Assembly (NCBI GenBank): GCA_026770705.1
Contig: JANJGN010000011.1
Location: 106,516,001 to 106,580,000 of the forward strand
DNA from: Isurus oxyrinchus
Taxonomy: Eukaryota
DNA: 64,000 nt
Direction: 5' to 3'
Shown: positions 2,900-59,329 of the stretch, piece by piece
Numbering within the stretch: position 1 is the first letter of the stretch
Layout: the number at the start of each line of letters is the position of its first letter
The notes under the pieces: generated by a model
What the model was told of the DNA's origin: nothing
The model's database searches: none
Seen by the model: the letters and a program-made list of their open reading frames with translations, nothing else
Program-made: the position numbers and the translations under genes

Positions 2900-3970
2900 A
2901 GATATCTGGCAGCATCAATAACACAACAACAGCAGCAACAACAATCTTCTTGTTATTGGCCTGCCACTCTGCTTGAGGGAGAGGATGAGCAGAGAGATGC
3001 AGATATCTGCAAAACAGGGTATGCAGGCAGAGCATTAGCTTCCTGTTCATGTCTGAACACTAGTGTATCAGGTGGCTCAGGGTCTCCTGTCACCTGATGG
3101 CAGACATTTGCAGCCTTCTGGCAAAAAAATTGTTGTAAGTGGACCTAGTGGCCACACTTTACTACTAGTTGTCAAAGTTACCTCCAACCTCAAATTCATT
3201 GGCTCCTTCCAGGGATCAAACAGCAACAATTGCAGAACGTCGCAGGCCCAGAAGTGCATGACACAGGTAACTGACGCCATGTTTGCCAGAGCTGACAATT
3301 ATGTACACTTTGTCACCGATGATGCCTGTCAGAATGAGCGGGTACTCAATTTGTGCCTCTGATTAGCTTCCAAAGAGTGCAGGTCACCATTGACAGTACA
3401 CATGTGGTAATCAAGACACACACCCCCAGTCCACCCAGAAGTGTTTGTGAACTGCACAGGCTTCCATTTCATCAATGTAGAACTGGCATACAACCTGAAG
3501 AAGATGATTATGCAAGCGTGCTTAAGATTCCCAGGGAGCTACCTACGCCAGTTCACCCTCCCTGACCCCTGCGTACCTTGAAGCAGACTTACCGGCTGGC
3601 TATTCAAAGTGGATACCAACCGAGAACATGACAACCATGAGGAAAGCAGCCATTGAAACTCAAGAGCGCTAAAAAGCTATGAAAGTTATATGACTACCAA
3701 ATGTGTCATTGAACAAGCAATCAGCATGCTGAAGATGTGCTTCAGGTGTATCCACAGATATGGAAGTGCCCTTCAGTGCAGACCAGACAGGGTCTCCAGA
3801 ATGGTGGTGGTGAGCTGCATTCTGCACAACATTGTACAGCAGTGAAGTTTGGACTTGCAAGAGGAGCAACATGCAGAACAGAGAACCTCTTTGGAACAGG
3901 AGGAGGAATGTGATGCAGTCAATACACCAGCAGCAACTTACATTTGCTCCCCAGGATACCCTCATAATAG
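2900..3970 (+). pseudogene. PIF/Harbinger DDE transposase fossil (HARBI1-like family)
   Basis: Frameshifted peptides VVKVTSNLKFIGSFQG..QVTDAMFARADNYVHF, RVQVTIDSTHVVIK, FVNCTGFHFINVEL..RFPGS, VIEQAISMLKMCFRC..CILHN. Confidence 0.85.
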
Positions 3971-4669: not shown

Positions 4670-6224
4670 TTTAAGGTGACATTCATACCATAAAGTAAAT
4701 TGTGAGGAGGATGTAAAGAGTTTACAATGGGATATAGATAGGTTCAGTGATCGGGCAAAAAATTGGAAAATGGAGTACAATGTGGGAAAATGTGAACTCA
4801 TCCACCTTAGCAGGTAGAATTGAAAAGCAGTGTATTATTTAAAGGGAGAAAGATTGGAAAACTCGACAGGGATCAGGGTGTCCTGGTACATAAATCGCAA
4901 GTAGTTAGTCTGCAGGTACAGCAAGGATTAGGAAGGCAAATGGAATGTTGTTGTTTATTGCAAAGGGAATGGAATGTAAAAGTAGGGAAGTTTTGTTGCA
5001 GCAGTATAGGGCCTTGGTGAGACCACATCTGGAATACTATGTACAGTTTTGGTCTCCTTAATTGCTACTGGAAAAAATAGCATCAGAAGCAGTTCAGAGA
5101 AAATTCACTTGGCTAACTCCTGGGATGAGGGACTTATAAGGAAAGGTTGGAAAAGTTGGGCTTATAACAATTGGAGTTTAGAAAAATGAAAGGTGACCTT
5201 ATTGAAACATATAGGCCAGAATTTTCCCGTCGGCGATTTGGGGGTGGTGCCCGCTCGCCTACGGGAAAATGACGCGAGATGACCCCCGACGTCATCCTGG
5301 TCCCTTTAGCTTTCAGGAAGGCGGGCGGACAGTGAAATCAGTTGTCCGCCTGCCGACCTGTCAATGGCCAATTGAGGCCATTGACAGGGTAATTAAAGTA
5401 ATTAAAGACCCTGCCCCGTCCAACCTTAAGGCTGGCGGGCAGGCCCAGAGCCCCAGTGGGCTTCTGATAATATATGAAACCTCATCCACTGGCGGGATAA
5501 GGTTTCATGTTTCTTTTTAAAAACTTTAATAAATGTAATGTGATATTTATTAACATGTCCCATCTCGTGTGACATTGTCACATGAGGGGGACATGTTAAT
5601 AATATTTCTATTTTTCTATTTTTTAAGTTTTGTACAGTCAGTAATCTCCCTGAGACAGGACTTTGCCTCAGGGAGCAGTGCGTGAAAGAGCGCACTTTGA
5701 CAGTTGGGGATTCCCTCCCCGTCCTGCACAGAAAGCGCATAGCGCTTCCTGTTGGGCAGCCTGCTGGGTGGGCCTTAATTGGCCCACCCACCCAAAAACG
5801 GCAGCGGGCCCCGTTTCAGCTGCGGGGGTTGGCTGTCCGTCCGCTGCCGAGCAGGTGGGGCTCGCACGCCCACCAAGGGCAAAATTCTGCCCATAAGATC
5901 CTGAGGGGATTTAGCAGGGTGCAGCCCCTTCTGGGAGAGACTAGAAATAGGGGACACAGATCAAAAATAAGGGGTCTCCCATTTAAAATGGAGATAAGGA
6001 GAAACAATTTCTCTCAGAGGGTTGTTGGTCTGTGGAATTCTCTTCCCCAGAAAGCAATGGAGACAGGGTCATTGAATATTTTTAAGGCTGAGTTAGATAG
6101 ATTCTTGATTGAAAAGGGAGTCAAGAGCATAGGAAAGTAGAGTTGAGGCCACAATCAGACCAACCATGATCAGGCTCAAGGGGCTGAATGGTCTTCTCCT
6201 GCTCCTGATTTACATGTTCATATG
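4670..6224 (+). mobile_element. CR1 (HER1-type) LINE 3' fragment interrupted by a MITE
   Basis: RT C-terminal peptides LVRPHLEY and RGHRSKI..FSQRVVGLWNSLPQ; tail ggctgaatggtcttctcctgctcctg. Confidence 0.85.
5214..5892. mobile_element. Harbinger-type MITE nested in CR1
   Basis: TIR ggccagaatttt / aaaattctgccc; TSD ATA; removing it restores CR1 gaaacatATAagatcctgagg. Confidence 0.9.
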
Positions 6225-9564: not shown

Positions 9565-9749
9565 CTCATCCCCTGATTAACCTTCAGCCATGCCTTCTTG
9601 CTTTCAATAGGATGCTTCTTCCTCTCATCAGTAAGGAATAGTATCTCCTTGTGGGCCTTGCCATCCTAAGTATCATACACAGGATCATATCACTAAAGCG
9701 AGTCACAGGCTTGGAGTGTTGGACTCTATTCTGACAGTTCTTCTTTTGT

Positions 9750-11100
9750 TTTTCCACCTCCAAAATCCATCAACTTCACCTTTGCAGGTGTTGCTATGGG
9801 TACCTGTGTAACCTACATACCCAGTTATGCCGAATGTTTTGTGAGATATATGGAACATTTATTATTCCAAGGCAACTCAGGCCTCCTCACTTATCTCTTT
9901 TTCCAGTACATTGATGACTGTATCAGTACCGCCTCCTGCACTTGCCATGAACTGGAAAATTTAATTGACTTTATTTCCAATATCTACCCTTCTCTCTCCA
10001 TCACGGGTCCATCTCCGACTCTTCCCTTCCTCGATTTCTCTGTCTCAATTTCTGGAGATTTGGAGGTTTGTAATGATCATCAATAGATAACTTACCTACT
10101 CTTACCATTGTCGCAACTACATTTTCTCACACTCTGCTTCCTGTAAGGACTCCATTCCATTCTCCCAGTTTCTCTGTCTCTGTCACATCTGTTCCATTGA
10201 TGCAATCTGCTTCATTTTTAAAAATGTATTCATGGGATGTGGGCATCACTGGCCAGGCCAGCATTTATTACCTATCCCTAATGGCCCTTGAGAAGGTGAT
10301 GGTGAACTGCCTTCTTAAACTTCTGCAGTCCATGTGGTGTGCATACACCCTCAGTGCTGTTCGGGAGGGAGTTCCAGGATTTTGATCCAGCGACAGTGAA
10401 GATATAGTTCCAAGTTAGGATGGTATGTGGCTTGGAGGGAAACTTCCAAGTGGTAGCATTCCCATGCATCTGCTGCCCTTGCACATCCAACACGTCTTCC
10501 CTTTTGCTCAACCGAGGATTCCCGTCCAGTATGGTGGACAGGGTCCTCCAACGTGTCCAATCCATTTCATGCATCTTTGCTCTCATCCCTCCCAGAACCA
10601 CTAAACACACCTTCCTTTTCCCTCCCCTTTGAGCATTCCGTAGGTACTGGTCCCTCCACAACACCCTAGTCCATTCCTCAGTCACCACTAACGCCCTCCT
10701 CCCTTCCCTATGGCACCTTTTGGTGCAAGCACTTGCCCTTTCACCGGTTCCCTTCCCCCTCATTTAAAGCCCCAGACACTTCTTCGAATTGAAACAATGA
10801 TTTACTTGTACTTCTTCCAGTTTAGTTTACTGCATTCGCTGCTCATGAAGTGGTCTCCTCTACAGTGGGTAGATTTGATGACCGCTTTGTGGAACTCCTC
10901 CATTCAGTACAAAAGCACTACCCCGAGCTTCTGGTTGCTTGTCATTTTAATTCTCCATCTTGCTCCCACTCTGAGCTTTCTGTCCATGGCCTGCTACAGT
11001 GTTCCAATGAAGCTGAATGCAAGCTTGAGGAACAGCACTTTATCTTTAGACTCAGCACTCTGCAGCCTTCTGGACTCAACATTGAATTCAACAACTTTAG
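9750..11100 (+). mobile_element. Penelope-like element fragment (RT plus GIY-YIG endonuclease)
   Basis: GVAMGT, FFQYIDDC, LPFLDFSVSISG; C-terminus VACHFNSPSCSHS..KLEEQHFIFRLSTLQPSGLNIEFNNFR. Confidence 0.85.
10215..10485 (-). mobile_element. CR1-like LINE 3' end inserted in the Penelope fragment
   Basis: Ends ..GSKSWNSLPNS..KKAVHHHLLKGH; same family as 43150-45873. Confidence 0.8.
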
Positions 11101-11103
11101 ATC

Positions 11104-14100
11104 CAGCAGGTCTGGCAGCATCTGTGGAGAGAGAAACAAAGTAAATGGTTCGAGTCTGTATGACTCTTCTTCAGAGCTAAAGAGAAGTAGAAATGTGATG
11201 GATATTATGCTGTTTAAGAGAGAGTGGAGCAGGTGGAGCAAAATAGGTCAGGGATAGGTGAGAGCTTAGGAGAGACTGACAAAGATGTCATGCACACAAG
11301 TCAAAGGGAGTGTTAATGGTCATGGTAAAGGTTAAGGAAGGTGATGACAGTGGCATAAAGGTAAGATAGCAGATGTGTTAATACCAGAACAAGGGTCAGC
11401 GCTCTGTGAAAGAACAACATCGAAAAAAGTGACAGATGGCCCCTGTGGGTGGGGGCGTGGGGTGGGTTGGGGGGGGTGGGGCGGGGGAGGTGGTGGTGGT
11501 GGTGGGCGCGTGGTACAATAAAAGGGAAAAGATAAAAGAAAAGGATAAAAAATAAAAATAAATAAAAATAAATTAAGTAAATAAAGTAATAAATAAATAA
11601 ATATTTTTTTTTTAAATTGGATTTAAAAAGCGATAAAGATGGAGGAGACAGTTCATGGTCTGAAGTTGTTGAACTCAATGTTAAGACCGGAAGGCTGTAA
11701 AGCTCCCATTTGGAAGATGAGGTGCTGTTCCTCCAGTTTGCGTTGAGCTTCACTGGAACATTGCAGCAGGCCAAGGACAGACATGTGGGCATGAGAGCAG
11801 GGTGGTGTGTTGAAATGGCAAGTGATAGGAAGGTCTGGGTCATGCTTGCGGACTGAGCAAAGGTCTTCCACAAAGCTATCACCAAGTCTGTGTTTAGTCT
11901 CTCCAGTGTAGAGGAGAAGTTGAAATCCCCCACTATTACATAATAGGGTAGTAATAGTGGGGGATTTCAACTTCCCCAACATTAACTGGGTTAGTCATAG
12001 TGTGATAGGTTTAGAGGGAGCAGAATTCTTAAAATGCATCCAAGAGAGCTTTTAAGCAAGTACATAGAAGGTCCTACAAGACAGGGGGCGGTCCTGGACT
12101 TAATTTTAGGGAATGAAGCCGAGCAAGTGGTGGAGGAATCCGCAGGGGAGTATTTTTCAGATAGTGATCACAACTCCATTAGATTCAAGGTTGTTATGGA
12201 AAAGGACAAGGATGGGCCAGAAATCAGAGTTCTAATTTGAGGCAAGGCTGATTTTAATAAGATCAGATAGATTTGGCCAGTGTGGACTGGGAGCAGCTAC
12301 TTTTAGGTAAATCTACATCAGAGCAGTGGGACTCATTCAAGAAGGAAACAGGAAGAGTACTGGGCCAACATATTCCAGTAAAGATAAAGAGTGGGACCAA
12401 CAAATCCAGGGAACCCTAGATGTCGAGGGATATACAGGATTGGATAAAAAGAAAAAGGGAGGCTTAAGGCAGATACCGAGGGCTCAAAACAGCAGAAACC
12501 TTAGAAGAGTATAGAATATGTAGGGGGGAACTTAAAAAGGAAATTAGGAGAGCAAAAGGGGGGCATGAAAAGACATTGGCAGGTAAAATGAAGGAAAATC
12601 CAATGTTATTTTACAAATATTTTAAGAGTAAGAGGATAACTAGGGAAAGAGTAGGGCCTATTAAGGACCACATGGTAATTTGTGTGTGGAACTGGAAGAC
12701 GTAGGTAGGGTTCTAAATGAATACTTTGTGTCAGTGTTCACAAGTGAGAGGGACAATGTAGGTGTGGAAATCAGGCAGAAGGACTGTGATATAATTAAAG
12801 AAATTAGCATAGAAAGGGAGGAGGTTCGAAGTGGTCTGGCAGGCTTAAAAGTAGATAATTCTCCAGACCTGGATAAAATGTATCCCAGGCTGTTGAGTGA
12901 GACAAGGAAGGAGATAGCAGGGGCACTGGGCAATAAGTTTCAATACATCTCTGGCCACAGGAGAGGTGCCAGATGACTGGGAGACAACCAATGTGGTACT
13001 ATTATTCAAGAAGGGAGGAAGGGATAAACCAAGGAACTACAGGCCAGTCAGTCTTACCTTAGTGGTGGAGAAACTATTGGAAGCAAGTCTGAGGGACAGA
13101 ATTAATCTACACTTGGAGAGCCAGGGATTAATCAAGGGCAGTCAGCATGGTTTTGTTAAGGGGAGGTCAAGTCTGACCAATTTGATTGAATTTTTCGAAG
13201 AGGTGACCAGGTGTGTAGATGAGGGCAATGTATTTGATGACGTCTACTTGGACTTCAGCAAGGCTTTTGATAAGGTCCCACATGGGATATTGATAACAAA
13301 GGTAAGAGCCCATGGGATCCAAAGCAATTTGGCAAATTGGATCCAGAATTGGCTGAGTGGCAGGAAGCAGAGGGTGATGGTCGAGGGGTGCTTTTGTGGC
13401 TGGACGTCTGTGCCCAGTGGGGTTCCACAGGAATCAGTGTTGGGTACCTTGCTGTTTGTGGTATATATATTAATGATTTAGACTTGAATGAGGAGGGTTG
13501 GTCAGTAAGGTTGTGGATGACACGACAGTTGGTGGGGGTGGTAAATAGTGAGGAGGATAGCCTGAGGTTACAGGACGATATAAACAGGCTGGTCAGATGG
13601 GCTGATCTGTGGCAAATGGAATTTAATCCACATAAGTATGAGGTGATGCACTTGGGCAAGACAAACAACGCATGGGAATACATGACAAATGGTAAGACTC
13701 TGGGAAGTACCAAGGATCAGAGAGACCTTGGTGTGCATGTCCACCAGTCCCTTAAGGTAGTGCAACAGGTAGATAAGGTGGTTAAGAAGACATATGGGAT
13801 ACTTGCCTTTATTAGCCGAGGCATGGAATATAAGAGCAGGAAGGTTATGCTGGAACTGTATAAAACGTTGGTTAGGCCACAGCTAGAGTATTCCGTGCAG
13901 TTCTGGAATCCGCATTATAGGAAGGATGTGATTGCACAAGAGAGAGTGCAGAGGAGATTTACCAGGATGTTGCCTGGGCTGGAGAGTTTTAGTTATGAGG
14001 AGAGATTGGATAACTGGGATTATTTTCCTTGGAGCTGAGGAGATTGAGGGGGACATGACTGAGGTGTATAAAATTATGAGGGGCATAGATAGGGTAGACA

Positions 14101-15320
14101 GGAAGGAACTTTTCCCCTTGGTAGAGAGATCAATAACCAGGGGGCATAGATGTAAGGTAAGGGGCAGGAGGTTTAGAGGGGATGTGATGAAGAATTTTTT
14201 CACCCAGAGGTTGGTGGGAACTCACTGCCTGAAAGGGTGGGAGAGGCAGAAACCTCATAACATTTAAGAAGTATTTGGGTGTGCACTTGCGATGACATGG
14301 CATACAAGGCTATGGGCCTAGCACTGGAAAATGGGATTAGAATAATTAGGTATTTGTTTGACTGGCACAGAACTCGATAGGCCGAAGGGCCTTTTTCTGT
14401 GCTGTAGACCTCTATGACTCTATGGCTCTATGAGACCGCATTGGGAGCAGCAAATACAGTGGACTAAATTGAAGGAGGTGCATGTGAAGCACCACCTCAC
14501 CTGAAAGGAGTGTTTGGGGCCTTGGACAGTGTGGAGGGAGGAGATCAAGGGGCAAGCGTTGTTCCTTCTGCAATTGCATAGGCAGGTGTCGTGGGAAGGG
14601 GGTGAGGAATTGGGGTTGATGGAGGAGTGGACCAGGGTGTCACAGAGGGAGTGGTCCCTACAGAATGCTGACAGGGGAGGTGAGGGGAAGATGTGTTTGA
14701 TATGGCATCATGCTGGATTTGGCAGAAGTGGAGAAGGATGATACTTTGAATGTGGACGCTGGTTGGGTGAAAAGCGAGGACAGAGGTACCCTATCTGGGA
14801 GGGAGGGGGAATGGGTGAGGGCAGAGTTGCGGGAGATGGGCCGGACACAGTTGAGAGCCCTGTCAACCAGAGTGGGGGGATCTCTCAGTTAAGGAAAAAG
14901 GAAGACATGTCAGAAGTGTCATTTTGGAAGGTAGCATCATCAGGGCAGATGCGACGGAGGCAGGGGAACTGGAAGAATGGTGTCCTTACAGGAAGCAGGC
15001 CGTAAGGAACTATAATCAAGGTAGCTGTGGAAGTCTGTGGGCCTGTAATGAATATTGGTAGATAGCCTATCACCAGAAATGGAGACAGAGAGGTCAAGGA
15101 AGGAATGGGAAGTGTCAGAGATGGATCCACCCTCTCCAACCCCTCTTAAACAGTATAATATCCATCACATTCCTACTTCTCTTTAGCTCTGAAGAACTCA
15201 TATGGACTCAAAACATTAATTCTCTTTCTCTCTCACAGATGCTGCCAGACCTGCTGAATTTTTCCAGCATTTTCTGTTTTTATTTCAGATTTCAAGCATC
15301 CGCAGTATTTTGCTTTTAAC
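11104..15320 (-). mobile_element. Penelope-like element with inverted terminal pseudo-LTR, split by a CR1 insertion
   Basis: ORF remnants 15138-14432 and 11915-11653 (LLYTGETKHRLGDSF..LNIEFNNFRP) join across the CR1; 11104-11225 is an inverted copy of about 15140-15260. Confidence 0.85.
11918..14431 (+). mobile_element. 5'-truncated CR1 LINE (ORF2 from APE end through RT), frameshifted
   Basis: GDFNFPNINW, PTRQGAVLDLIL, NYRPVSLT, QHGFVKGRS, YLDFSKAFDKVPH, LVRPQLEYSVQFW; (ctctatga)n tail; GAGA duplicated at both junctions. Confidence 0.92.
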
Positions 15321-15476
15321 TTTAGATCCATCTTGTTCTATGTGTTTTTCTTCCCCTCCTATTTTGTTTTGCTGGGTCGGTCTTCATCTTGTTTCTTTCT
15401 TTGCCACTTGATATTGCAAAGATTGTTTTAATGTAGCCATTCACACTTTGTTTGGACCAACCCTTGTTTCTTTATT

Positions 15477-16043
15477 GGGCAGAATTTTCTGCCTGTTGGG
15501 TGGGTGGGCCCGACCAAATCTCCGGAAGGCAGGGAGCCAATCCCCACCAGCGAAGCAGGCTGCACCGCCATTTTACATGGGTGGGCCAATTAAGGCCCAC
15601 CCAGCGGATGTCCAGCGGGAAGCGCTATGCACTCCCTGTGCAGGCAGGGGGGATTCCTAAAAGCGAGAGTGTGCTCTTTCACGAATACGCATAAAAGACT
15701 GCACATCTCCCTGAGGCTACGTGCAGCCTCAGGGAGATTGACTGGACTTTGAAAAATATTAAAAATAGAAAAATAAATTCCTTACATGACCCCCTCATGT
15801 GACAATGTCACATGAATTGGGACATGTTCATACTTTACAGAATAACTTTATTAAAAATTTTTAAAACCCTGCATGAAACCTCATCCAGCCACTGGATGAG
15901 GTTTCGTGTTTTCTCTATTTGCTGCCGGGGCTTCTAGCCTGTCTGCCAACCTTAAGGCGGGCTGCACTGCCATTTTACGTGGGTGGGCCAATTTCAGCGA
16001 GCGGGCCCCGTGCCCCCCACTCGCCGATGGTAAAATTCTGCCC
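15477..16043. mobile_element. Harbinger-type MITE
   Basis: TIR gggcagaatttt / aaaattctgccc; TSD ATT. Confidence 0.9.
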
Positions 16044-16183
16044 ATTATATTCATTGTCACTCTCTTTGGATGTTGCATCATGAAATCTTTTGTTACTTAA
16101 TCCATCCTGGCCCCCACCCTATCACAGTCCTTTTCCTTTCTGACTCTCCCCCATTCTACTGGCTAACAATCCTATCTTTCCTC

Positions 16184-16220
16184 AGTTCTGATGAAAGGTC
16201 ATCGACCTGAAACGTTAACT
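16184..16220 (+). ncRNA. minimal type I hammerhead ribozyme motif in a Penelope 3' repeat
   Basis: AGTT-CTGATGA-A-AGGTC-atc-GACCT-GAAA-CG-TT-AACT: intact core, 5-bp stem II, 4-bp stem I, palindromic ACGT stem III, GUU triplet. Confidence 0.75.
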
Positions 16221-16339
16221 CTATTCTATCCACAGATGCTGCCTAACTTGCTGTTTTTTCCCAGTTGTTTTGGACTTATTTCAGTCTGAATGATCTATGT
16301 TCCATAATACATCATCAACATTTTACTTTGAGAATTAAA

Positions 16340-16672
16340 TCTCCTGACCTCTCTGTCCAGTTGAATTCTTGAGTACAGTCTTGAGGGAGTGCTGCATTGT
16401 TGGGGGTTCCATCTTTTGGATGAGACAGGTCGATGCAAAAGATCCCATGGCACTGTTTGAGGAAAAGAAGGGGAGTTCTCTCCAGTGTCCTAACCAACAT
16501 TTGTCCCTCAACCAATATCAAAACCAAATGATTTGGTCATTTATTTGCTTACTGTTTGTAGGAATTTGCTGTCAGCCCATACTCCTAGGTAGGATTCTCA
16601 TCTCTCAGTCAGAAAGTTATGAATTTCAGTTCCAATCCAGAGATTTAAGCACAAAATTAACCCTGATACTCC
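16340..16672 (+). mobile_element. Deu-domain SINE (SacSINE1/AmnSINE1-like) fragments
   Basis: gagggagtgctgcattgt..aaaagatcccatggcact..gttctctccagtgtcct..tccctcaaccaa, followed by a head-like segment tcagtcagaaagttatg..tccagagatttaagcacaaaa. Confidence 0.7.
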
Positions 16673-19116: not shown

Positions 19117-19721
19117 GGGCAGGAATTCCCCACGGTGGGAGTGAGCACAAACCTGATCGGTGCACCCAATCGGGTACGCGCTGCCATTTCATGTGGGCAG
19201 GCCAATTAAGGCCTGCCCAGCGTGATGCACAACCGGAAGTGCTGAGCGCTCCCTGTGCAGGCAGGGGGGATTCCCTGAGCCGGGGTCTGCGATCTTTCGT
19301 GCATGCCTCAGGGAGATTAGCTTAAGTTTTGAAAAATGTAATAAAGGTAAAAAAAAATTTAAGGACATGTCCCCTCATGTGAAACTGTCACATGAGCTGG
19401 GACAGGTCCATTAATTTTTTCAAAAAATTTGATGTAATTAATAAACCCTTCACGAAACCTCATCCCATCCGTGGATGAGGTTTCATGAAAAATGTGAAGG
19501 CTACCTGAGCTCTTCGCTTGCCTGCCAACCTTAAGGTTGGACCGGCAGCATTCTTAACAGCTTTAATTACTTTGTTAATGGTCTTAATAGGCCTTTGACA
19601 GCTCTGCGGGCACACAGCCGATAACGCGTGGTGATGTCGGGACACCCACCCGACATTTTATGTCATTTTATGCGTTGGAGAGTGGGCCCCGCCCCTGCAC
19701 GCCAACAGGAAAATTCTTCCC
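19117..19721. mobile_element. Harbinger-type MITE
   Basis: TIR gggcaggaattcc / ggaaaattcttccc; TSD GAT; same internal hairpins as 15477-16043. Confidence 0.85.
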
Positions 19722-23780: not shown

Positions 23781-24718
23781 GATAAAAGCAAAATACAGCA
23801 GATGCTAGAAACCTGAAACAAAAGCAGAAAATGCTGGAAAAACTCAGCAGGTCTAACAGCGTCTGTGGAGAGAAAAACAAGAGGCCTGAGTTTTACCTTT
23901 GGCATGTGGGCGAGCGTCCAACACTCCAGAATGTAATATGACACACGAAGACGTCAGGCGTGCGTCCCGTCATTGTACACTTGCACGATATTTTGTTCAG
24001 CGGGCACACGCTGGAGTCAGCTGCACGTCCACCAATAATTGAAAGGCCTATTAAGGCCATTAAGGACCTTATTAACTTGAAAGTTACTCTGCCTATCCAA
24101 CCTAACGGTTGGCGGGCAGGTGAAAAGGCCAAGCAGTCTTTACATTTTTAGGAAACCTCATCCATGCGCGGAATAAGGTTTCCTAAAGCTAATACTAATT
24201 AAATAAAACCTTTATCTTGACATCAAAAACATGTCCCATCTCACGTGGCACAGTCACATGAGGGGACATATTTTATTCAATTTTTACTGTATTTATTAAT
24301 TTTTTTTCAAAAGCGCTTCAATATCCTTGAGGCAGCTCTGTGCCTCAGGGAGACTGAAGTGCTTTTTCATGCACATGCACAAACTGTGTGCCAGGCCCGT
24401 TCTCCCTCCTCCCCCACCCACAAAGGCAATGCTCCACGCTGCCGCTCACATTCCATGCTGGATGGGCCTTAATTGGCTGGCCCATGTGAAATTGCGGTGC
24501 GGAGCTGATTGCGGTCGGCGGTCGGCTCCCCAACTGTTCCCTCCGAGCACGCTCGACCGAAGGCAAAATTCAGGCCAGAGTTAATGTTTCGAGTCGGTAT
24601 GACTGTTCTTCATCTGAAGAAGAGTCATGCGGACTTGGAGCATTAACTCTTTTTTTTCTTTCCACAGATGCTGTTTGAGCTGCTGAGTTTTTTTCTGCAT
24701 TTTCTGTTCTTGTTTCAG
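23781..24718. mobile_element. fold-back Penelope pseudo-LTR element with two back-to-back degenerate hammerhead motifs
   Basis: Left arm aaaagcaaaatac..gtctgtggagag is inverted relative to ttccacagatgctg..ttttctgttcttgtttcag; hammerhead remnants at 24577-24650. Confidence 0.7.
23883..24576. mobile_element. Harbinger-type MITE
   Basis: TIR ggcctgagtttt / aaaattcaggcc; TSD AGA. Confidence 0.88.
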
Positions 24719-27700
24719 CAATGAAATGTCTCTAATTAAAGGGGCCCTAGCGGGACTCACAACAACAGCAATGATTGTTGCATGCAATCCAGTGGGAAGG
24801 AGCAAAAACCATCAGTATAGATGGAGGACATGGAAAGGCTACTCGGCTTGAGATGACGATAGATGCTGGCAAGGCATGGAGCAAAGTCCCTGTCCCTGAG
24901 GATGTCAGGAGGATTGCCAGCCAGCCCTACCAAACGGGCCTGGTTTTATGTTGTAGAAGCTATCAGGATAAATGTATACAATAGCCTGAACACTCTGGCT
25001 GCCAGTTTATTGATTGATTGATCAGTTTATTGAACTGCCAATGATCATTTAGGGGCTAAATGTTCTTTTACTCTTGACTAGCAGGGAAGTCCAGGAGGAC
25101 TCTGAGAGGGAAGATGGCAAAATTGCTGATGGCAGTGAGGGTTATTCTCAAGGCATCTCCATTCATGGCTCTTGCCCCCTACCCCTGAAAGAATAGCACA
25201 TGATGCCTCCTGCCCCAATGACAGAATCTGCCCCTGCGCAGATTCAGATTGTGTAGCTTTTGCTGGGACTCTCACTAGCTCCAAACACAGAGCATGTTCC
25301 CATGTGTATTTCACAGTAGAGCTGGGGAAAGAGCAACTTACCTTCAGCTCTACTGGAGTCACATAGGAGTGACAGAAAGCGTATGAAGATAAGGTCTTTG
25401 CTGCACAAAGGTAATCATTTGGGAGATGATTATGGTGTTACGCTTCCAATGTTCTCTTTCTTTGAGCAAAAGAATGAGTTTATGTGAACTACCCATTGTC
25501 ATGACCTCTACTTTGTTGGATCAACTGTTGACCCTGGTCAGTTTTACTCCACTGAATGGCATGAGCTGCCTCAATGAGAAAGTACACTGTGAGTATGATG
25601 GTTGGCAGTGTGTATTTAAGGTAGAGGTTTAGTGGTGGTGTTGGGTTATGGTCTTGCACAAGAGACTTGATGGGAAATCTGCAATGCTGCAAACACACTG
25701 CCTGGATGAAGCACTTGCAGGCTTCTTGGGCAAGCCGGTCTGTGGGTGCAGGCACCAACAGCACATCAGGATGCTCCTTCTCCTTCTTTTCCTCCAAAGC
25801 TGCCAGGTGCTCTCCACCTTCCTCTTGCACTAGGTCCAGTCCTCTCTATAAAGTCACATTTTTCAGGGCACAGCAGACCACAACAATCCTTGAGACCCAT
25901 GCTGTGACATGTTGAAGGGCTTTTCCAGACTTGTCAAGGCAGCAGAACCTCATTTTGAGCAAGCCAGTGGCTTGTTCTGCTATTACCTTGTTGGCAACAT
26001 AGGTCTTGTTGTACCTGTCCTGTGCCTCTGAAGACTGGGTCCTTCAATGGGTTCATCTGCCAGGCCTTGAGTGGGGCCTTGTCCTCCAAGAATCAAGCAC
26101 TGTGCCTTTCTGGTGGATAGAAGAGCTGCAGAACCTGAGACTGCTGAAGTATGAAAGAGTTATAGAACCTACCTGGGTGCTTGGTGCACATTTGCATTAT
26201 CTCTGGCAGTGGTCACATATCAGCTGCACATTAAGGAAGCCCTTCTGATTTATAAATATGCCTGACTGTTCTAATGATGCCTTCATTGCCAAATGGGTGG
26301 AGTCTATAACCCCCTGGACCTGTATAATTCCCATTCAGAAAGCAAAGCCGAATGCCCTCTGGATTTGATTGGGCTCAGCCTAATCTCAAAGTTTTATAAA
26401 TCTAATCACACAAACAAAGCAATGTCAGCAGGCTGATGCAGTAATGGGCTGCAGATTGCTAGATCCTAAAGATATCACCAGCAGATCCCTTGAAGGACCC
26501 AGATGCAAAGAAATTAAAGGCTGTGGTCACTTTGATGGCCACGGGCAATGAGTGACCATATGGACCTTTTAGGTGGAGGTCTTCTTCCAGCAGGCTGCAG
26601 ATGTGGGTGCCTGCCTGTCATGACAGCTTGAGCTTTCTGCACTATTGGTATTCAGAGAGGTCAGGGAAGATGACCCTTGGCCTGTAGATCACCTGCTGGG
26701 GAATTGCCTCCTTCAAGATGCAGCTATGTATTCATCCCCTTTGTTCTATCCAGCTTCATGTGGCTGTCGAGAAGGTAGCTGCTGCTGTTGGAGTTACTGC
26801 TCCTGTTGCTGTGGCTGCTTAGCTGGAGCACATTGCACTTCATCCTCAGAGGCCCAATCAACCTCCAAGTATGTGGACATGTCACAGGGAAGTCTCACAG
26901 TCAATAAGGTGACTCTTACTGGAATCCAAGATGCTTGATAGAAGTTCCACAAAGTTGCAGTTCCCAATGAGATTAGTGAATGTAGGCTGAAAAAAAAGTG
27001 TCTGTCATTGTAAGTCTTTCATTGCAGCTGACCACAGGTTTGCTGGTTTCATCCTTTATGCTGCTTCTATTAGGCCAGTTTCATTGTACAATGAGTTCCT
27101 GCTGTGCACTCACCTTCTCCAACCTGGCAAATGACAGACATAGCTTTGAACCTACTGCTGTTTGGGGAAGAAGGAGGCCAGTGTTTAAAAAGGCTCTTAA
27201 TTTGTCTTTTTAATTGTCCCAATTGCTCTCCTGTCAGACCTAATTGTCCTCTCAACTCAGAATCCACCCAGGAGAAAATCAGAAGAGGGAGGAATGATTT
27301 CAGAGTTCGGACCCAACATTAATTTCTGGGGATTTACCAGTTCATATGCAACAGAACCTGCCTCCATTTGCCTGGGAAATTCTGTCCATTAACTCTGTTT
27401 TTCTCTCTACAGATGGTGCCAGACTTGCTGAGTAGTTGCAGCATTTTCTGTTTTTATTTTTTTTAGTTCTATGGGTGAAAGAAACTATCTTTGTCAAGGA
27501 GATTGTTTATTCTAAACTTCATTACAAAACAATACCATGGGCAAAAATTTACTTTAAGAAAATATATATTCACTAAATACAGGTACCATGGAATGAAAAT
27601 GAGCTGAAGAGAAACTTAAACCCAGAATCACCTATCTCCTCTGAGCTTACATGGAGCTGCTACACTTCATCCATTGCTAAATCTGCCTTCAAGAAAGGCA

Positions 27701-31834: not shown

Positions 31835-32600
31835 TTTTTATTCATTCAAGGGATGCGTGCATCTCTGGCTAGGCCAGCATTTATTGCCCATTCTTAATTG
31901 CCCTTGAGAAGGTGGTGGTGAGCTGCCTTCTTGAACCGCTGCAGTTCATGTGGTGCAGGTACACCCAGAGTGCTATTAAGGAGGGAGTTCCAGGATTTTG
32001 ACCTAGCGATAGTGAAGGAACAGCGATATATTTCCAAATCAAGATGATGAGTGGCTTGGAGAGAAATTTCCAGGTGGTAGTGTTCCCATGTGTCTGCTAT
32101 CCTTGTCCTTCTGGATGGAAACACTTGTGTGTTTGGAAGTTGCTGTCTAAGGAGGCTTGGGAGTTCCTGCAGTGCATCTTGTAAATGGTACACACTGCTG
32201 CCACTGTGCATTGGTGCTGGAGAGACTGAATGTTTGTGGATGAGGTGCCAATCAAGTGGGCTACTTTGTCCTGAATGGTGTCAAATTTCTTGAGTGTTGT
32301 TGGAACTACATTCATCCAGGCAATTGGAGAGTATTCCATTACACTCCTGATTTGTGCCTTGTAGATGGTAGACAGGCTATGGGGAGCCAGGAAGTGAGTT
32401 ACTCATTGCAAGATTCCTAGCCTCTGATCTGCTCTTCCAGCCACATTATTCATATGGTTAGTCCATTTCAGTTCCTGGTCCAGGATGTTGATAGCAGGTG
32501 AAACAGCGATGGTAATGCCAGTGAATCTCAAGGGGTGATGCTTAGATTCTCTCTTGTTGGAGATGGTTATTGCCTGGCTTGTGAGGTGTGAATGCTACTA
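31835..32600 (-). mobile_element. CR1-like LINE 3' part
   Basis: MEYSPIAWM..TTLKKFDTIQDK; ..KKAAHHHLLKGN. Confidence 0.85.
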
Positions 32601-34697: not shown

Positions 34698-34878
34698 CAG
34701 GGTTAATGTTTCAAGTCCAATATGATTCATCTTCAGAACACCTGGTTCTGAAGAGGAGTCATGTTGGACTCGAAACATTAACTCTGTTTCTCCACAGATG
34801 CTGTCAGATGTGCTGAGTTTTTCCAGTATTTTTCTGTTTTTATTTTGGATTTCCAGCATCGGCAGTATTTTGCTTTAT
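34698..34878. mobile_element. Penelope pseudo-LTR with back-to-back hammerhead motifs
   Basis: 34702-34739 is an inverted copy of 34745-34782; plus-strand motif GGTT-CTGAAGA-G-GAGTC-atgttg-GACTC-GAAA-CATT-AACT. Confidence 0.72.
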
Positions 34879-36190
34879 TAATGTCGGGAGGGGTTTAATT
34901 GAGAGTCGTTATTGATTGGGTGATATGGACAAGTGTCAAACCCATCCAATGTTAGTAGTTTGAAGCCCAAGCTATTTTAAATCCCATGCTTAGTATGAAT
35001 CCCAGCTGGCAAATGCCAGCCTGAATTGGCAGAAGGAGGCAAAAGGCAATCAAAATATGGGCCCTGGAGGCTGCCCATTGACAACAATGTAAGTTATGCC
35101 ACAGTTGGCATATGGTTGTGGGTGGGAAAAGTAGTCCATGGCAGCAGAATCCAAAAATGCCCTTGCTGGACCTGGAAGAGCACAGCTCCTCTTCTTGGGT
35201 CTGCTAAGTGAAGTTATTGTCTTACCTTAGAGAGCACTTCCTCCTCTTCCTCAAATGATGGCTAACTGATTGCTTTTGGGTGCAAATGATGTCAAACAAT
35301 TTCAATATTTTCTGGCAGAGAGCACCTCCTCTTCTTCGTCTTCAGATTTTACTGAAGCTGCATGCTCACTCTTAGCACCCGACTTGATAGAATGTTAAAA
35401 TCAGGATTTTAATGACATTTATAGAACTGCCAATTAGTATGTTTTAATGAAGGTGCCTGCTTGAGTCAGGTAGGCACATTGGCTGCCTAAAGAAAGGGCT
35501 TGGTTAGGATGGTGGTGTATGGGAATCAAGTGGGAACAGAGCAGCAAGTCTTTACAGAGCTATTTTAACTGTAAACGTTACCAGGCGGAGTGGTTTAACA
35601 TTCCCCACAAAGTACCTTTCCCAGAGTCTAATGATGACCTCTTTACATCAGCACAGGCCTCTGCACCCAAAACATTCTATCACAATGCAGCGACCCGGAA
35701 ATACAATTGAACTGAAGGGCGTATATCTGCCACTCAGGTGTAGCCTTTGAAGCGAGAGGGTCAGGCTCTCTGAAGAATCCTTCTCCTAATCAAAGCCTTT
35801 CTTGTCCAAATGTAACACAGAGAAAACAACCACCTTCTGTGAACAAAATAACTGCTGACTGGACAGTCATAAGCAACATAAGCATTGCTAAATTTTGACA
35901 AACTATCCACAGTAACATTCAAACCAAGTTTGATGTTAGAGTTTCTCTGTGTGCCATCCCAGCGTGCAGCAACTCCTCTTCCAATATAAAAGCCTGCTGT
36001 GTTACATTACAGATCAAGATAAAAGGAGTTGTTTCAGAAAAAATGCTGCATTTAAAACAACACTCCAAAAAGATGGACTAGTGATAATTCCATTTAAAAA
36101 GATTTGTCGTTTGAATAACGGATTAATCCATTCACCTTTAAAGAAAATGTAATCACTAACTGACAGCTTACAAGACAATGGTAAAAAGGA

Positions 36191-36402
36191 AACAAAAACA
36201 GAATTACCTGGAAAAACTCAGCAGGTCTGGCAGCATCAGCGGAGAAGAAAAGAGTTGACGTTTCGAGTCCTCATGACCCTTCAACAGAACAACAACAACT
36301 CTTTTCTTCTCCGCCGATGCTGCCAGACACCTGCTGAGTTTTTCCAGGTAATTCTGTTTTTGTTTTGGATTTCCAGCATCCGCAATTTTTTTGCTTTTAT
36401 CT
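36191..36402. mobile_element. 212-bp fold-back Penelope-derived mini-element with hammerhead motif
   Basis: Perfect 14-bp TSD aatggtaaaaagga (36177-36190, 36403-36416); about 67-bp inverted arms; minus-strand hammerhead at 36252-36292. Confidence 0.85.
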
Positions 36403-37394
36403 AATGGTAAAAAGGACTTGAACAACTTACTACAGGAATCTCCAACTTTGTTCCCCTGCAGCACCCCATCCGCCCCACCACAAGGTGAAGGAAATGAAAG
36501 TTGAATTTTAAATTAAGCAACAGACCCAATTCAATCCCTTACAAATCAACTTCCTGCAGCTGGAGAGAATTTCATGGCCACATGGGGCATCTACACTTGA
36601 AATGCTAATCCATTTATTTTTGGCCCTCTGCCTTAACTAAATGTCAGAAATAAGCCAGATTAAGTGTAATCTTGATGGCCTTTAATGTAAAGATTAAAAG
36701 GGTTCCATCTGCAGCCAATATCCTGCTTAGGTTACATTAGCCCAACAGATAAGCCTTTGAAAGTAATAAATGTGCAACTTTAGACACAGTAAGACAGCTA
36801 TTAAGTGCAGATATACAAAAACAAGGAAAACCACATTATGGTTATATTCAAACACTGCTCACTGGAAAAGCAATGTTCATGTCCAATATTTTCTCATTCT
36901 GATGAACAGTGATTGACCCAAAATATCAACACTGTTCCTCTCTCCACAAATGCTATCTGACTTGCAGAGTGTTTCCAGCTTTTTCTGTTTTTGCTTCTGT
37001 AAATGTTGCCTTTCACTATTCTGTTGTACATTTTGCTTCCCACCAAACAGCATGGCTGGTAATTTATTAGAAGGCCTGTTTGCGGGCACAGCTACTTAAA
37101 GCCATCAAAGGACCAACCATGAATCATGTTGCCAGAAAAGATTAAATAGGCTGAATGTAGAGAAATATTTCCAAAAAGCCTCAGGTCAGACTGCAGAACT
37201 GGTGCAAGAAGTATTTAAATACAATCCTTTAGAATCCTAACCAGAGAAAATAAAATGAAAAAAGAAACATAACAATCTAATATAGATCATGCCACAAATG
37301 GAAACAGAATTTTAGCATTTAAAACCAGATAAAAATCATGGAAGTAACTTTGCTAGCAGGTTGATAATTACTCCCAGTGTTTTTGAAACATCAC

Positions 37395-43149: not shown

Positions 43150-45873
43150 ATTGACACCATCATCACCAACCCTGGGTATGTCTTGTCCCATCGGGCAGGA
43201 CAGGCCCAGTAGAGGTGGCGGCACAGTGGTATACAGTTGGGAGGGTGTTGCCCTGGGAGTCCTCAACATTGATTCCAGACCCCATGAAGTTTCATGACAT
43301 CAGGTCAAACATGGACAAGGAAACCTCCTGTTGGTTACCACATACCGCCCTCCCTCAGCTGATGAATCAGTGTTCCTCCATGTTGAACACCACTTGGAGG
43401 AATCATAGAGAGTGGGAAGGGCGCAGAATGTACTCTGGGTGGGGGACTTCAGTGGTTTGGTAACACCACGACTGACCGAGCTGGTCAAGTCTTAAAGAAC
43501 ATAGTTGCTAGACCAGATCTGTGGCAGGTGGTGAGGGAACCAACAAGAAGGAAAAACATACTTGACCTCATCCTCACCAACCTGCCCGCCATAGATGCAT
43601 CTGCCCATGATAGTATCGGTAGGAGTGACCACTGCACAGTTGTTTGGGAGACAAAGTCCCACCTTCGCATTGAGGATACCCTCTATCGTGTTGTATGGAA
43701 TTACCACAGGGCTGAATGGGATAGATTTTGCACTGGTCCAACAACTCAAGACTGGGCATCCATGAGGTGTTGTGGGCCACCAGCAGCAGCAGAAATGTAC
43801 TTGAACAAAATCTGTAACCTCATGGCTCGGCATATCCCCCACTCTACCATTACCATCAAGCCAGGGGATCAACCTTGGTTCAATGAAAAGTGCGGGAGGA
43901 CATGCCAGGAACAGCACCAGGCATACCTAACAATGAGGGGTCAACCTGGTGAAGCTATAAAACAGAACTACCTGCATGCCAAACAGCATAAACAGCAAGT
44001 GATAGACAGGGCTAAGCGATCCCACAGCCAACGGATCAGATCTAAGCTCTGCAGTCCTGCCACATCCAGTCATGAACAGTGGTGGACAATAAAACAACTG
44101 GAGGAGGAAGCTCCATAAATAGCCCCATCCTCAATAATGGGGGAGCCCAGCACATCAGAGCAAAATACAAAGCTGAAGCATATGTTACAATCTTCAGTCA
44201 GAAGTCCAAAGTGGATGATCAATCTCGGCCTCCTCTGGAGGTCCCCAGCATCACAGATGTTAGTCTTCAGCCAATTAGATTCACTCCACGTGATATCAGG
44301 AAATGGCTGAAGGTACTGGATACTGCAAGGCCTATGGGCCTGACAGTATTCCAGTGATAGTACTGAAGACTTGTGATCTGGAAGTTGCTGCGCCCATAGC
44401 CAAGCTGTTCCAGTACAGCTATAACACTGGCATCTACCCAGCTATGTAGAAAATTATTTAGGTATGTCCTGTACATAAAAAGCAGGACAAATCCAACCCG
44501 GCCAATTACCGCCCCATCAGTCTACTCTCCTTCAACAGTAAAGTAATGGAAGGAGTCATCAACAGTGCTATTAAGCGGCACTTGCTAAGCAATAACCTGC
44601 TCATTGATGCTCAGTTTGGGTTCTGCCAGGTCCACTCAGCTTCTGACCTCTTACAGCCTTAGTTCAAACATAGACAAAAGATCTCAACTCCCGAGGTGAG
44701 GTAAGAGTGACTGCCCTTGACATCAAGGCAGCATTTGACTTTGCTTGGCATCAAGGAACCCTAGCAAAACTTGAGTCAACAGGAATCAGAGGGAAAACTC
44801 GCCAATGGTTGGATTCGTACCTAGCACAATGGAAAATGGTTGTAGTTGTTGGAGGTCAGTCATCTCAGCTTCAGGACATCACTGCAGGATTTCCTCAGGG
44901 TATTATCTCAGCCCAACCCATCTTCAGCTGCTTCATCAATGACCTTCTTTCAATCATAACGTCAGAAGTGGGGATGTTCGCTGATGATTGCACAATGTTC
45001 AGCACCTTTCACAATTCCTCAGATACAGAAGCTGTCCGTGTCCAAATGCAGCAAGACCTGGACAATATCTAGGCATGTGCTGACAAGTAGCAAGTAACAT
45101 TCGTGCCGCACAAGTGTCAGGCAATGACCATGTCTAACAAGAGAGAATCCAACCATTGCTCCTTGATGTTCAATGGCATTACCATCACTGAATTCCCCAC
45201 TATCAACATCCTGGGGATTACCATTGACCAGAAACTGAACTGAACTTGTCATATAAATACTGTGGCTACAAGAGCAGGTCGAGACAAGGAATCCTGCGAC
45301 GAATCGCTCACCTCCTGACTCCCCAAAGCCTGTCCGCCACCTAAAAGGCACAAGTCAGGAGTGTGATGGAATACTCCCCACTTGCCTAAATGAGTGCAGC
45401 TCCCACAACGCTCAAGAAGCTTGACACCGTCCAGGACAAAGCAGCCTGCTTCATTGGCATTACATCCACAAACATTCACTCCCTTCACCACCCACGCACA
45501 GTAGCAGCAGTGGGTACCATCTACAAGATGCACTGCAGGACTTCACCAAGGCACCTTAGACAGCACTTTCCATACCCACAACCACTACGATCGAGAATGA
45601 CTGGGGCAGCAGGTAGATGGCTACACCACCACCTGGAAGTTCCCCTCCAAGTCACTCACCATCCTGACTTGGAAATATATCGCTGTTTCTTCACTGTCGC
45701 TGGGTCAAAATCCTGGAATTTCCTTTCTAACAACATTGTGGGTGTACCTACACCACATGGACTGCAGCAGTTCAAGAAGGCTGCTCACCACCACCTTCTC
45801 AAGGGAAACTAGGGATGGGCAATAAATGCTGTCCCAGCCAGTAAAGCCCACATCCATGAGTTAATAAAATAAA
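43150..45873 (+). mobile_element. 5'-truncated CR1-like (CR1/L2 group) LINE, ORF2 with stops
   Basis: APE PTRRKNILDLILTN..GRSDH; RT NYRPISLL, ALDIKAAFD, VGMFADDC; end KKAAHHHLLKGN and A-rich tail. Confidence 0.9.
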
Positions 45874-51949: not shown

Positions 51950-52600
51950 CCCTGCCAGTTGGCTCTGCCATACAATGTTTGATTGCTCCTTGAGATGTTT
52001 TCCTGCTGAATAATGTAATAAGATGGTTCTGATCATCATCTCTCAGAGACTGGGGGACTTTCAAGCATCTGTCATTTGTATGCCACTTTCTCCTGCAAGA
52101 AAGACTGTGCAGTGTGTCAGTGTTATGCAATGTTTGGGTGACACAGTTATCATGGTTGAATAACTGGAGTGTGCAAGTTGAGATGTGGATGTAAAACTTA
52201 TAACAATGTGTCTGAGAGTGGGGGAATGATTAATGTTAGGAACAAGTCTTGATTGATAGACAGTTTTTGGTCAGTAAATGGTGGAAGTGCAGTGAACTGA
52301 AGTTAGTGGTGCAGTTGGTAAGATATGGCATTTGAAGATGCGTTCACTGACCTTAATGTGACATCTTCAAACTTCTAATGACACTGCAGTTACGTCCTTG
52401 AGGCTACATTCCTGGCATTGATGTCCACAGATATCTGCTCCCATTGCTTTCTCATCATGTGCCTGGAGGGCCTCCTGGACTTCTGCAGATATAGGAAGCC
52501 TCTCCTCCTCTCTAGGTCCTGCACCAAGACCATCAATGCAGGACCGGAAACCTTTGGCACATGTTCTCTCCAATGGTCAGCCATTGTTCTTTGTTGCCCA
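51950..52600 (-). pseudogene. Harbinger Myb/SANT gene fossil
   Basis: LMVLVQDLERRRGFLY..RRPSRHMMRKQWEQISVDINARNVASRT. Confidence 0.7.
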
Positions 52601-53439
52601 GCACTATTCAAATGAGGTAAGTAGCTCTAGCAGCCACAATGAACCTTTCCTTTAAGAGGCACAGGCTAGCATTAGGTAGTGTGAGCAAGGAATGATAGTA
52701 AACCCCCTGCTGATATGTACAGCCAATGAACGTCGTTGTTATCACTGGCTGCATACAGAAATCATGATCATAATATCAAAGTAAGGGTTAATCATGAACC
52801 AAGATCCCAGCACCAATTTTTGGGAGGTGTTCAATTTAGTCTACCACATTATTAAATGATTTCTATCACAACAATTCTTTCCCAGAAACAATGGCAGTTA
52901 ACATCTTATGAAGTTCCACCAGAATACTATTTTTGATTTCTACATTAATTCCAGTTAAATATACTAGAATCCTGCAATGTTGCAGAGGAACTATCAATCT
53001 TGTCTCTTAGCACTTAGGAGGAAAGCAACAGCACAGTAATTGCCAGTAAAATAAATACAACTGTGATACAGCATTTTCACGCTGGGGACACAGAATTATG
53101 AATATTTATAACCTTTTTCTGAAGAAAACATAGCTGTCATATCTTTGGCTTTGTATACTCAACATTTTCTCAGGTTTGGCATCACTGAATATTTCTGTAA
53201 GGACCTCGCATATCCTCTGACTTTCTTTCTGTCCAATATCTCAATAAAAGGAAGTAAGAGCCAGGTATGTAACAGAAAACTATTCTTTACAATAGCTACA
53301 GGAATGGGTTACATGCTGTCACGTGATTCTCTTTCTAAAGCATACTGCAAAATCTGTTCCCAGCCATCGATACATCCCCCTTACTGAGTTTAAGCCTGAG
53401 CCAGACAATTCACATTTGTAGTGGAAAAAACAGACCTTT

Positions 53440-58395: not shown

Positions 58396-59329
58396 AATAT
58401 CAGCAAAGCTGAGACATAGGTCTAGATTTTCACTCACAAGGCAGGTATGCAGAGTGGGAAATTTCCCCACTCCACGAACCTACCTCAGGGTAAACTGCCT
58501 GAACGGCCAGAGTTTTGCTCTTGGGGGAGGGGGGAGTAAGTGAAGGGTGGAATCAGGCCTCCCGACCCTTGAAGCAGTATGGATGTGGAGGTGGGCCCTT
58601 CATGCGTAACACGTCTTGGGCAGGGTAGAAAAGGAGGCCCTATAAGATGTTCCCGCTGTGAGGCAGGAAGTTGGTGCAAGTGCTGCTGCTGCTCAGAAAA
58701 GACGTCAATGAAGAGTCAGGTGAGCACTAACTGTGATTGATTGCTGACACTGGAAGAGATGACCCATCATGGGCTTTCTATAGGAAAATGTAGTCATTAC
58801 TGCTGCTGAGTCACATTGGAATGAAGGATCCCAATCTATAAGTTCAGGCTGGAAAAGCATCATAAGACACAGCCATGGAAATGGCAGCATCTTGGCATCA
58901 TCAGCTGCTCGTGATATTCTGTGCTATAATGCCTCAGGATTTGAATGATAGGCACCACATTTGCCAGGAACTTTTGCCCTTCTCACTTACCCTCTCTCCA
59001 TCCATCGCTCAGGGTGCAGCCATGCAATTGAATCTTGACCAGACCCTCAAAGCTGCATGCTGTCAAGGCAGAACAGTGTGACTCAGAGGAAGCAGGCCAG
59101 CAGGGTAGTTTGTAATTGGGAGCACAACATGTCCTCTAGGAGTAGCAGGATCAAAATCCAGGCTACCCTGTATTTATCCAGCCCTATTTTGCTTCCCCCA
59201 CCCCACCCCTCCAACATTAGGCATTGATGAGATAGACAACATGGTTCATGTATGTGAGCAGACATAAGTGGGTGAGGCCATTGGAAGCTAGAAGCCTTAC
59301 TTGCCCACTTTTTCATTTGTCATGCTCGG

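Follow-up and report, generated by a model that had tools for sequence, protein, structure and literature searches.

How does a complete self-cleaving ribozyme motif come to stand in the wreck of a mobile element in a shark genome, and could it still cut RNA? The question is raised by nucleotides 16184-16220 on the plus strand of the window, the whole 64,000-nucleotide stretch of Isurus oxyrinchus DNA that was analysed, where all core and stem letters of a minimal type I hammerhead ribozyme (min-HHR) are read as intact. The motif is very probably an ordinary min-HHR of a very abundant Penelope-like family, lodged in the 3' pseudo-LTR of a copy that is old and broken, likely to have been kept by chance and likely to be inactive.

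Positions within the motif follow standard hammerhead numbering (U16.1, U17 etc.). The letters AGTT CTGATGA A AGGTC ATC GACCT GAAA CG T T AACT are exactly those written in the initial annotation, and the extra A after A9, the loopless ACGU and the GUU that it pointed out are all present, each being either the published consensus or a common variant among the sequences of Fig. S3 in PMC4209133, where the consensus of the core is CUGANGAH. In the copy under study the 10.1-11.1 pair of stem II is A-U instead of the usual G-C, the hammerhead NUH triplet is GUU, and AACGUU (16211-16216) forms a six-base palindrome. A search of both strands of the window with a hammerhead descriptor yielded two matches, of which 16184-16220 is the only strong one, the other, at 35345(-), having a stem II of merely 2 bp. 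The identity proposed initially, a Penelope-type minimal type I hammerhead, is upheld by this fit to the published min-HHR consensus (PMC4209133).

Does the motif belong to the 3' repeat of such an element? Upstream of it on the plus strand lies a Penelope-like host element with a reverse transcriptase (RT) from about 9770 and a GIY-YIG endonuclease up to about 11100, which contains stops and frameshifts, is 5'-truncated, has been split by three insertions, one of them containing a fourth (Table 1), and is dead.

Table 1. Parts of the hammerhead motif, its host element and the insertions within it (window coordinates).
Feature	Position	Strand	Remark
Host ORF remnant: RT core (GVAMGT, YIDD), 5'-truncated	9691-10204	+	relatives map back here
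3' end fragment of a LINE or LINE-tailed SINE in host ORF	10215-10485	-	matches 45604-45859, 31844-32105, 56721-56990
Host ORF remnant: RT thumb, linker, GIY-YIG; stops and frameshifts	10490-11105	+	protein relatives
Second, nested Penelope-like element	11106-15317	-	flanked by 13-bp target duplication 11093-11105/15318-15330
Nested element: own decayed hammerhead	11178-11140	-	
Nested element: RT thumb, linker, GIY-YIG remnant	15128-14433, 11916-11659	-	
LINE (RVT_1 match) within endonuclease region of nested element	11918-14433	+	
Nested element: inverted arm	15126-15317	+	decayed hammerhead at 15185-15221
Host 3' untranslated part, first piece	about 15331-15476	+	assigned by position between two insertions
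MITE-like insertion	15477-16043		ends in inverted repeats of 12 bp and is flanked by ATT; no strand
Host 3' untranslated part/pseudo-LTR, second piece	about 16044-16183	+	aligns with same part of nested element
Stem I, 5' strand AGUU	16184-16187	+	pairs with AACU 16217-16220; 4 bp, no further extension
Core CUGAUGA (C3-A9) and unpaired A between 9 and 10.1	16188-16194, 16195	+	from sequence, consensus CUGANGAH
Stem II AGGUC/GACCU	16196-16200/16204-16208	+	5 bp; 3-nt loop AUC
GAAA, loopless palindrome ACGU, U17	16209-16212, 16212-16215, 16216	+	predicted cut between 16216 and 16217
Branch-point-like TTAAC (16215-16219), pyrimidine tract, CAG/ATG (16233-16238)	16215-16238	+	putative splice role
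Rest of pseudo-LTR	16221-16285	+	stops at the shorter of the family's two preferred 3' ends

Remnants of RT and then GIY-YIG, in the right order and on one strand, are the hallmark of EN+ Penelope-like elements, and further EN+ traits are seen in the 5' truncation of the host, in the inverted arms of the nested element and of three mini-insertions, and in the two 3' ends. The nested Penelope-like element (11093-15330), whose 13-bp duplication occurs just twice in the window, inserted at the last codons of the host and was later hit by the LINE at 11918-14433, which we take to be CR1-like; at the 5' end of the LINE insertion lies a strong hairpin (11917-11973) with microRNA-like Rfam matches below threshold. 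The first untranslated piece of the host is not significantly alike to the untranslated part of the nested element (248 of 300 shuffles score as high), and the second aligns to it at a level reached by 1 of 300 shuffles and is also covered by contigs of the family. The assignment of the first piece also draws on 11 contigs of run X8, in which the sequence at a loose end before 16058 looks by eye like that to the left of the MITE. More copies of the MITE are found near 5337-5900, 19179-19622 and 54858-55308. With the nested element and the MITE set aside, the motif lies about 280 nt behind the end of the ORF. As the RT-GIY-YIG remnant is followed on the same strand by untranslated pieces that resume up to the motif, its assignment to a Penelope 3' repeat (pseudo-LTR) was correct.

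Pfam searches with 31 and 268 reading frames of the window, between them covering all 279 frames of one listing, revealed no host exon and matched transposon families alone. Remnants with DDE_Tnp_4 and Myb/SANT-like domains, as in Harbinger-type transposons, lie at 3657-3842(+), 25849-26043(-), 62341-62832(-), 52393-52626(-) and 59276-59602(+), and are possible parents of the MITE with its 3-bp duplications. The window also contains a 262-bp inverted repeat of 100% identity (54594-54855/55918-56179, about 1.06 kb apart), which is either a DNA transposon of very recent origin or a feature of the assembly, and a 75-bp inverted repeat of 97% identity (31582-31656/34002-34076, 2.3 kb apart).

To which clade does the host element belong? 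A 109-residue piece (9757-10083) matches 290 proteins at E≤0.001, and the five long relatives that were checked, which map back to 9772-10204 and 10408-11092 on the plus strand, all end in a C-terminal GIY-YIG domain, with Pfam RVT_1 in four of the five. Half of the relatives looked up (5/10) are gene models of Rhincodon typus, and CR1-like and Penelope-like repeats are reported to abound in the whale shark (bioRxiv 10.1101/443036), so that a shark is the likely host organism. A word-index protein search with the endonuclease end as query gave no match. All five long relatives have a CX2-5CxxC linker between RT and endonuclease, described as a mark of Neptune and Nematis (PMC8557442), that is decayed in both window remnants and partly deleted in the host copy. 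The host element may thus belong to a Neptune-type clade.

How do the other copies of the family in the window look? A profile of the window copies matches at 16 places, of which 11 (including 16184-16220) have the motif and five the tail only, and all eight other loci that had been named initially hold related motifs, those at 24577-24650 and 34700-34785 holding two head-to-head motif arms each. Just one of the 11 motifs is intact and the other ten are broken. The CG of stem III is altered in 8/11, always to CA, TG or TA, which is typical of CpG decay; it is retained in 36287(-), where A6 is changed, and in 46252(+), where A6 is changed or stem II is broken and where GAAACGTT and AAC are retained. 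In the nearest copy on the same strand (15189) G12 and the palindrome are gone, and stem II is partly lost. Stem II is paired to 85% over the 11 copies and stem I to 64%. Two pairs of stem II are changed on both sides, both between the 16184-16220 copy and the GAGTC type, as the structure would predict, but the count of such changes is not above shuffles (241/500 as high; 117/500 for the score), the 11 copies being few, decayed and partly derived from one event.

The ends of the copies tell something about how they were made. Seven of the 11 motif copies start no more than 4 nt from the core and span the cut site, and long copies end at either of two 3' places about 35 nt apart, corresponding to the known optional tail. 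Tail-only copies were considered as cleavage products and give no such signal, as one of the five starts at the cut site, two start upstream of it and two are ambiguous. At three places (24576-24720, 34699-34876 and 36180-36410) the end of the element has inserted as a fold-back mini-copy; the inverted arm of both the first and the second ends 7 nt past the cut site, and in the third, which has a 14-bp target duplication, the second arm begins at the cut site.

Outside the window the family is abundant. In DNA run X1, 6,098 contigs lie on 15980-16400 (421 bases) with the peak on the motif, whereby 74% of the run was read, only contigs 80% alike were counted and depth is not copy number. C16213T and G16214A each make up 26% of the depth and G16209A, which affects G12, 2.6%; that about a quarter of the depth is without each of the CpG letters of stem III is what neutral decay would give. 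Loop 2 has a common ACA variant. A C at position 17 never reaches 5%, which indicates that GUU is the state of the family. The table of differences to which these figures belong has no rows for 16184-16201 and 16229-16300, likely near alignment ends. The family is useful in its own right, as the start and end points of reverse transcription with respect to the ribozyme can be read from its thousands of copies.

Could the hammerhead have a role in the element other than cleavage as such? Directly at the cut site, which is two bases before a branch-point-like A, the motif runs into what could be the 3' end of an intron (Table 1). Among 13 tails ACAG followed by ATG is present in 9/13 and AG in 10/13, with 12-16 pyrimidines in 17, a context found for 71 of the 8,831 AGs of the window, and the pyrimidine tract is weakened in the 16184-16220 copy. 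In the long tail at 15239-15316 the frame starting at CAG/ATG remains open throughout, and the ATG within the hammerhead core opens a frame of 32 codons (16191-16289) that is in frame with the CAG/ATG behind the cut. The AG of stem I (16184-16185) has a plausible context as splice acceptor but is confounded with stem I pairing. The loose ends of X1 contigs before 16184, 16185 and 16186 (285, 334 and 321 contigs) show low agreement, and 460 loose ends before 16183 resemble the untranslated part of the element. Copies that start at the edge of the core and span the cut would be made from uncut RNA, consistent with the result for the Anolis element. Precedents exist in that the intron of D. virilis Penelope is described to end at helix I (PMC4209133) and that the pseudo-LTR of a rotifer element is described to hold the first ORF codons (PMC3846280). 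It could thus be imagined that the hammerhead is situated inside a 5' intron of the element, so that cutting and splicing would be mutually exclusive, the ribozyme would act as a switch between mRNA and template RNA, and the mini-copies would be run-offs of uncut template. We consider this unlikely, because all copies derive from one ancestor, spliced RNA is not seen, the tail peptide finds no relatives in a word-index protein search, and the pyrimidine tract is absent in unrelated min-HHR families from metagenome loci. If true, the overlap with the branch point would give both the ribozyme and the retention of introns in Penelope-like elements a concrete role. Judged by titles and the beginnings of abstracts, we found no paper on Penelope hammerheads of sharks or on a cut site that overlaps a branch point; Luense et al. 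2017 or supplementary file 1 of PMC4209133 may include shark motifs.

To return to the preferred reading of a min-HHR relic, could this copy still cleave? Of the initial claim that it could do so after GUU if transcribed, the unbroken core stands, but a rival hairpin, the energies of the dimer, the decay of 10/11 copies and the weak activity of published min-HHRs speak against the rest: cleavage is possible in principle and, as far as folding models can tell, unlikely at this locus. With native flanks of 46-111 nt the model predicts stem II at 8-28% and stem I at less than 6%, and a rival hairpin over 16182-16210 that would bury the core. Because the motif is without loop 3, stem III cannot close in one strand. 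In a live element two copies of the motif would pair ACGU to ACGU and so build stem III, each core would take GUU and stem I of the other strand, and the cut would occur after U17, likely slowly and likely aided by the element's own protein. By analogy this dimer chemistry may be ascribed to the motif of the family, and the literature on the class supports the earlier statement that such motifs are thought to cleave as dimers (PMC4209133). For the window copy the active dimer is predicted at -10.9 kcal/mol versus -25.8 for the two-strand ensemble, a gap of about 15 kcal/mol, and a dimer with A14-U17 paired, a pairing that arises as U17 extends the palindrome to AACGUU, is 2.4 kcal/mol better than the active form, all of these energies leaving out protein help and tertiary contacts. 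No intact partner motif was found among the 11 motif copies of the window. Published min-HHRs are described as inactive as monomers and of low activity as dimers (PMC4209133; PMC6765202), and GUU is listed as a valid triplet, with GUC and GUA named as the fastest (PMC3138052). The motif of the Anolis element is reported to cleave only with the element's protein, and cleavage to be unneeded for insertion in vitro (PMC11167929).

Could the hammerhead of a dead element then cut in trans? It might still process read-through or intronic RNA together with transcripts of the family or with the help of a live element's protein, as the Anolis motif cleaves upon addition of its protein (PMC11167929); core, stems and palindrome are all intact, and a partner need not be identical, the letters of stem I and stem III being common to other copies such as 46252(+). 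We hold such activity to be improbable in view of the low predicted occupancy of both stems, the unfavourable energy of the active dimer and the broken state of copy 15189, and considering that even the active Anolis element yielded no reads with an end at the cut site (PMC11167929). Among the sequencing runs listed as containing the stretch none is given as RNA. Three runs that may be RNA have contigs over the repeated motif and none over the unique flanks 16145-16159 or 16280-16354; as contigs cannot show ends, strand or absence, we give this no weight in either direction.

Why is the motif intact if it is not in use? The two arms of the nested element, identical at the start, are now 87.6% alike, and the host is older than these arms, since the nested element inserted into it. 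A rough model gives a survival of 1-4% per copy and at least one intact motif among 11 in 12-35% of cases at 8-12% divergence, and one intact in 11 copies falls to 4.5-0.8% at 15-20% divergence. The 16184-16220 copy has no broken position in 37 nt and has kept three CpG-site letters; the tail just behind it shows 5/25 differences from the window majority, which implies that this copy may sit near the upper divergence range. According to the model chance survival suffices for one intact copy among 11, and the copy would accordingly be neutral. Selection might instead have kept the motif for a role in the processing of host RNA, or younger copies might have restored it by gene conversion, which would fit a perfect motif beside so divergent a tail in a copy older than the nested insertion. 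The lower rate of differences in cores than in tails across copies (6/110 versus 44/300, Fisher p 0.01) goes in the same direction but cannot carry weight, as the cores served both to choose and to align the copies and the tails mix subfamilies. Both variants appear very unlikely, as the best of 11 copies was picked, chance covers the observation at plausible divergence, no host gene was detected in the window and near-perfect copies are not rare, 136 X1 contigs being at least 99% alike to some part of 15980-16400.

Two other identities of the motif have little in their favour. Non-LTR retrozymes, non-coding tandem repeats that make circular RNA, contain the same type I hammerhead; their origin is placed in Penelope pseudo-LTRs, and one chondrichthyan is reported to have them (bioRxiv 10.64898/2026.07.22.740005), a type, a likely origin and a host group that agree with those found here. 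The anatomy of the locus contradicts such an identity and leaves it hardly any probability: the motif is a solo copy behind an RT-GIY-YIG ORF remnant to which it is joined, and comparison of the window with itself shows no head-to-tail unit around it. Regarding a mere chance resemblance to a short motif, no Rfam hammerhead model reaches 16184-16220, the sole Rfam hammerhead row in the window being HH9 at 57273-57347 with a chance-level 18.4 bits versus a cut-off of 52, and the folding stability of the monomer is unremarkable (z -1.08, -0.33 and -0.09 for three lengths), in keeping with a motif whose stem III is absent from the monomer. Chance is refuted by 300 dinucleotide shuffles of the window (0/300 strict matches; loose matches 0.14 on average), by the ten sister motifs, by the usual position of the class's ribozyme and by the fit to the published consensus (PMC4209133).

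How does the motif compare with known systems? Cervera and De la Pena (2014) described min-HHRs as without loop 3, with a palindromic 15.2-16.2, an unpaired base 9/10.1 and a short stem I, located in Penelope-like repeats (fish Xena, Poseidon and Neptune, and families of coelacanth and Xenopus) and also occurring solo in copies that number in the thousands, with about 4,000 in coelacanth and 9,000 in Xenopus (PMC4209133). The window motif shares with this class, as far as the described members go, the CUGANGA core, one unpaired base before a 5-bp stem II, a 4-bp stem I without loop 1, the loopless palindromic stem III, GUU, a U-rich flank and the position in a repeat behind the ORF, with most copies being solo. 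Its C-G-U-U ending is common among the rows of Fig. S3, and its A-U at 10.1-11.1, a pair that is G-C in more than 80% of the members, is also present in rows of Latimeria (2) and D. willistoni (PMC4209133). Unlike the described set, the copy sits in a dead element and belongs to a cartilaginous fish, none of which is among the Fig. S3 rows examined (PMC4209133).

A metagenome scan with the motif plus the family tail as query gave no matches, and one with the bare motif found at least 121 stretches and one in viral contigs, with 129 matches in these 122 loci. Among the 129 listed matches 93 form a stem II of at least 4 bp after one extra base and none does so without it; among the 122 listed loci none resembles the window tail or untranslated part, and none has a Penelope ORF match within 600 bases. 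These loci indicate that the class is widespread and are silent on the family of the window. Four of them (L001, L013, L040 and L053) contain a head-to-head pair of minimal hammerheads from an unrelated family that ends in GUC, a large family in which stem II varies.

Among elements studied in greater depth, Poseidon of Anolis carolinensis (PAc; Frangieh et al., 2024) resembles the window family in the hammerhead at the junction of repeat and ORF, in a preference for two 3' ends that lie some tens of bases from each other and in copies that span the cut site (PMC11167929). It belongs to the Penelope/Poseidon clade and is active, whereas the relatives of the window family carry the Neptune/Nematis linker and the host copy is broken; the ORF of PAc begins in stem II (PMC11167929). 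Neptune-clade EN+ elements (Craig et al., 2021) have, like the window family, a single ORF of RT and C-terminal GIY-YIG, with the Cys-rich linker found here in the relatives, 5' truncation, an inverted 5' arm and an optional tail of 30-40 bp, and in that account the function of the hammerhead in EN+ elements is called unclear (PMC8557442). Set beside these systems, the intact motif adds one more genome to the class described in 2014, and the copy itself is a relic.
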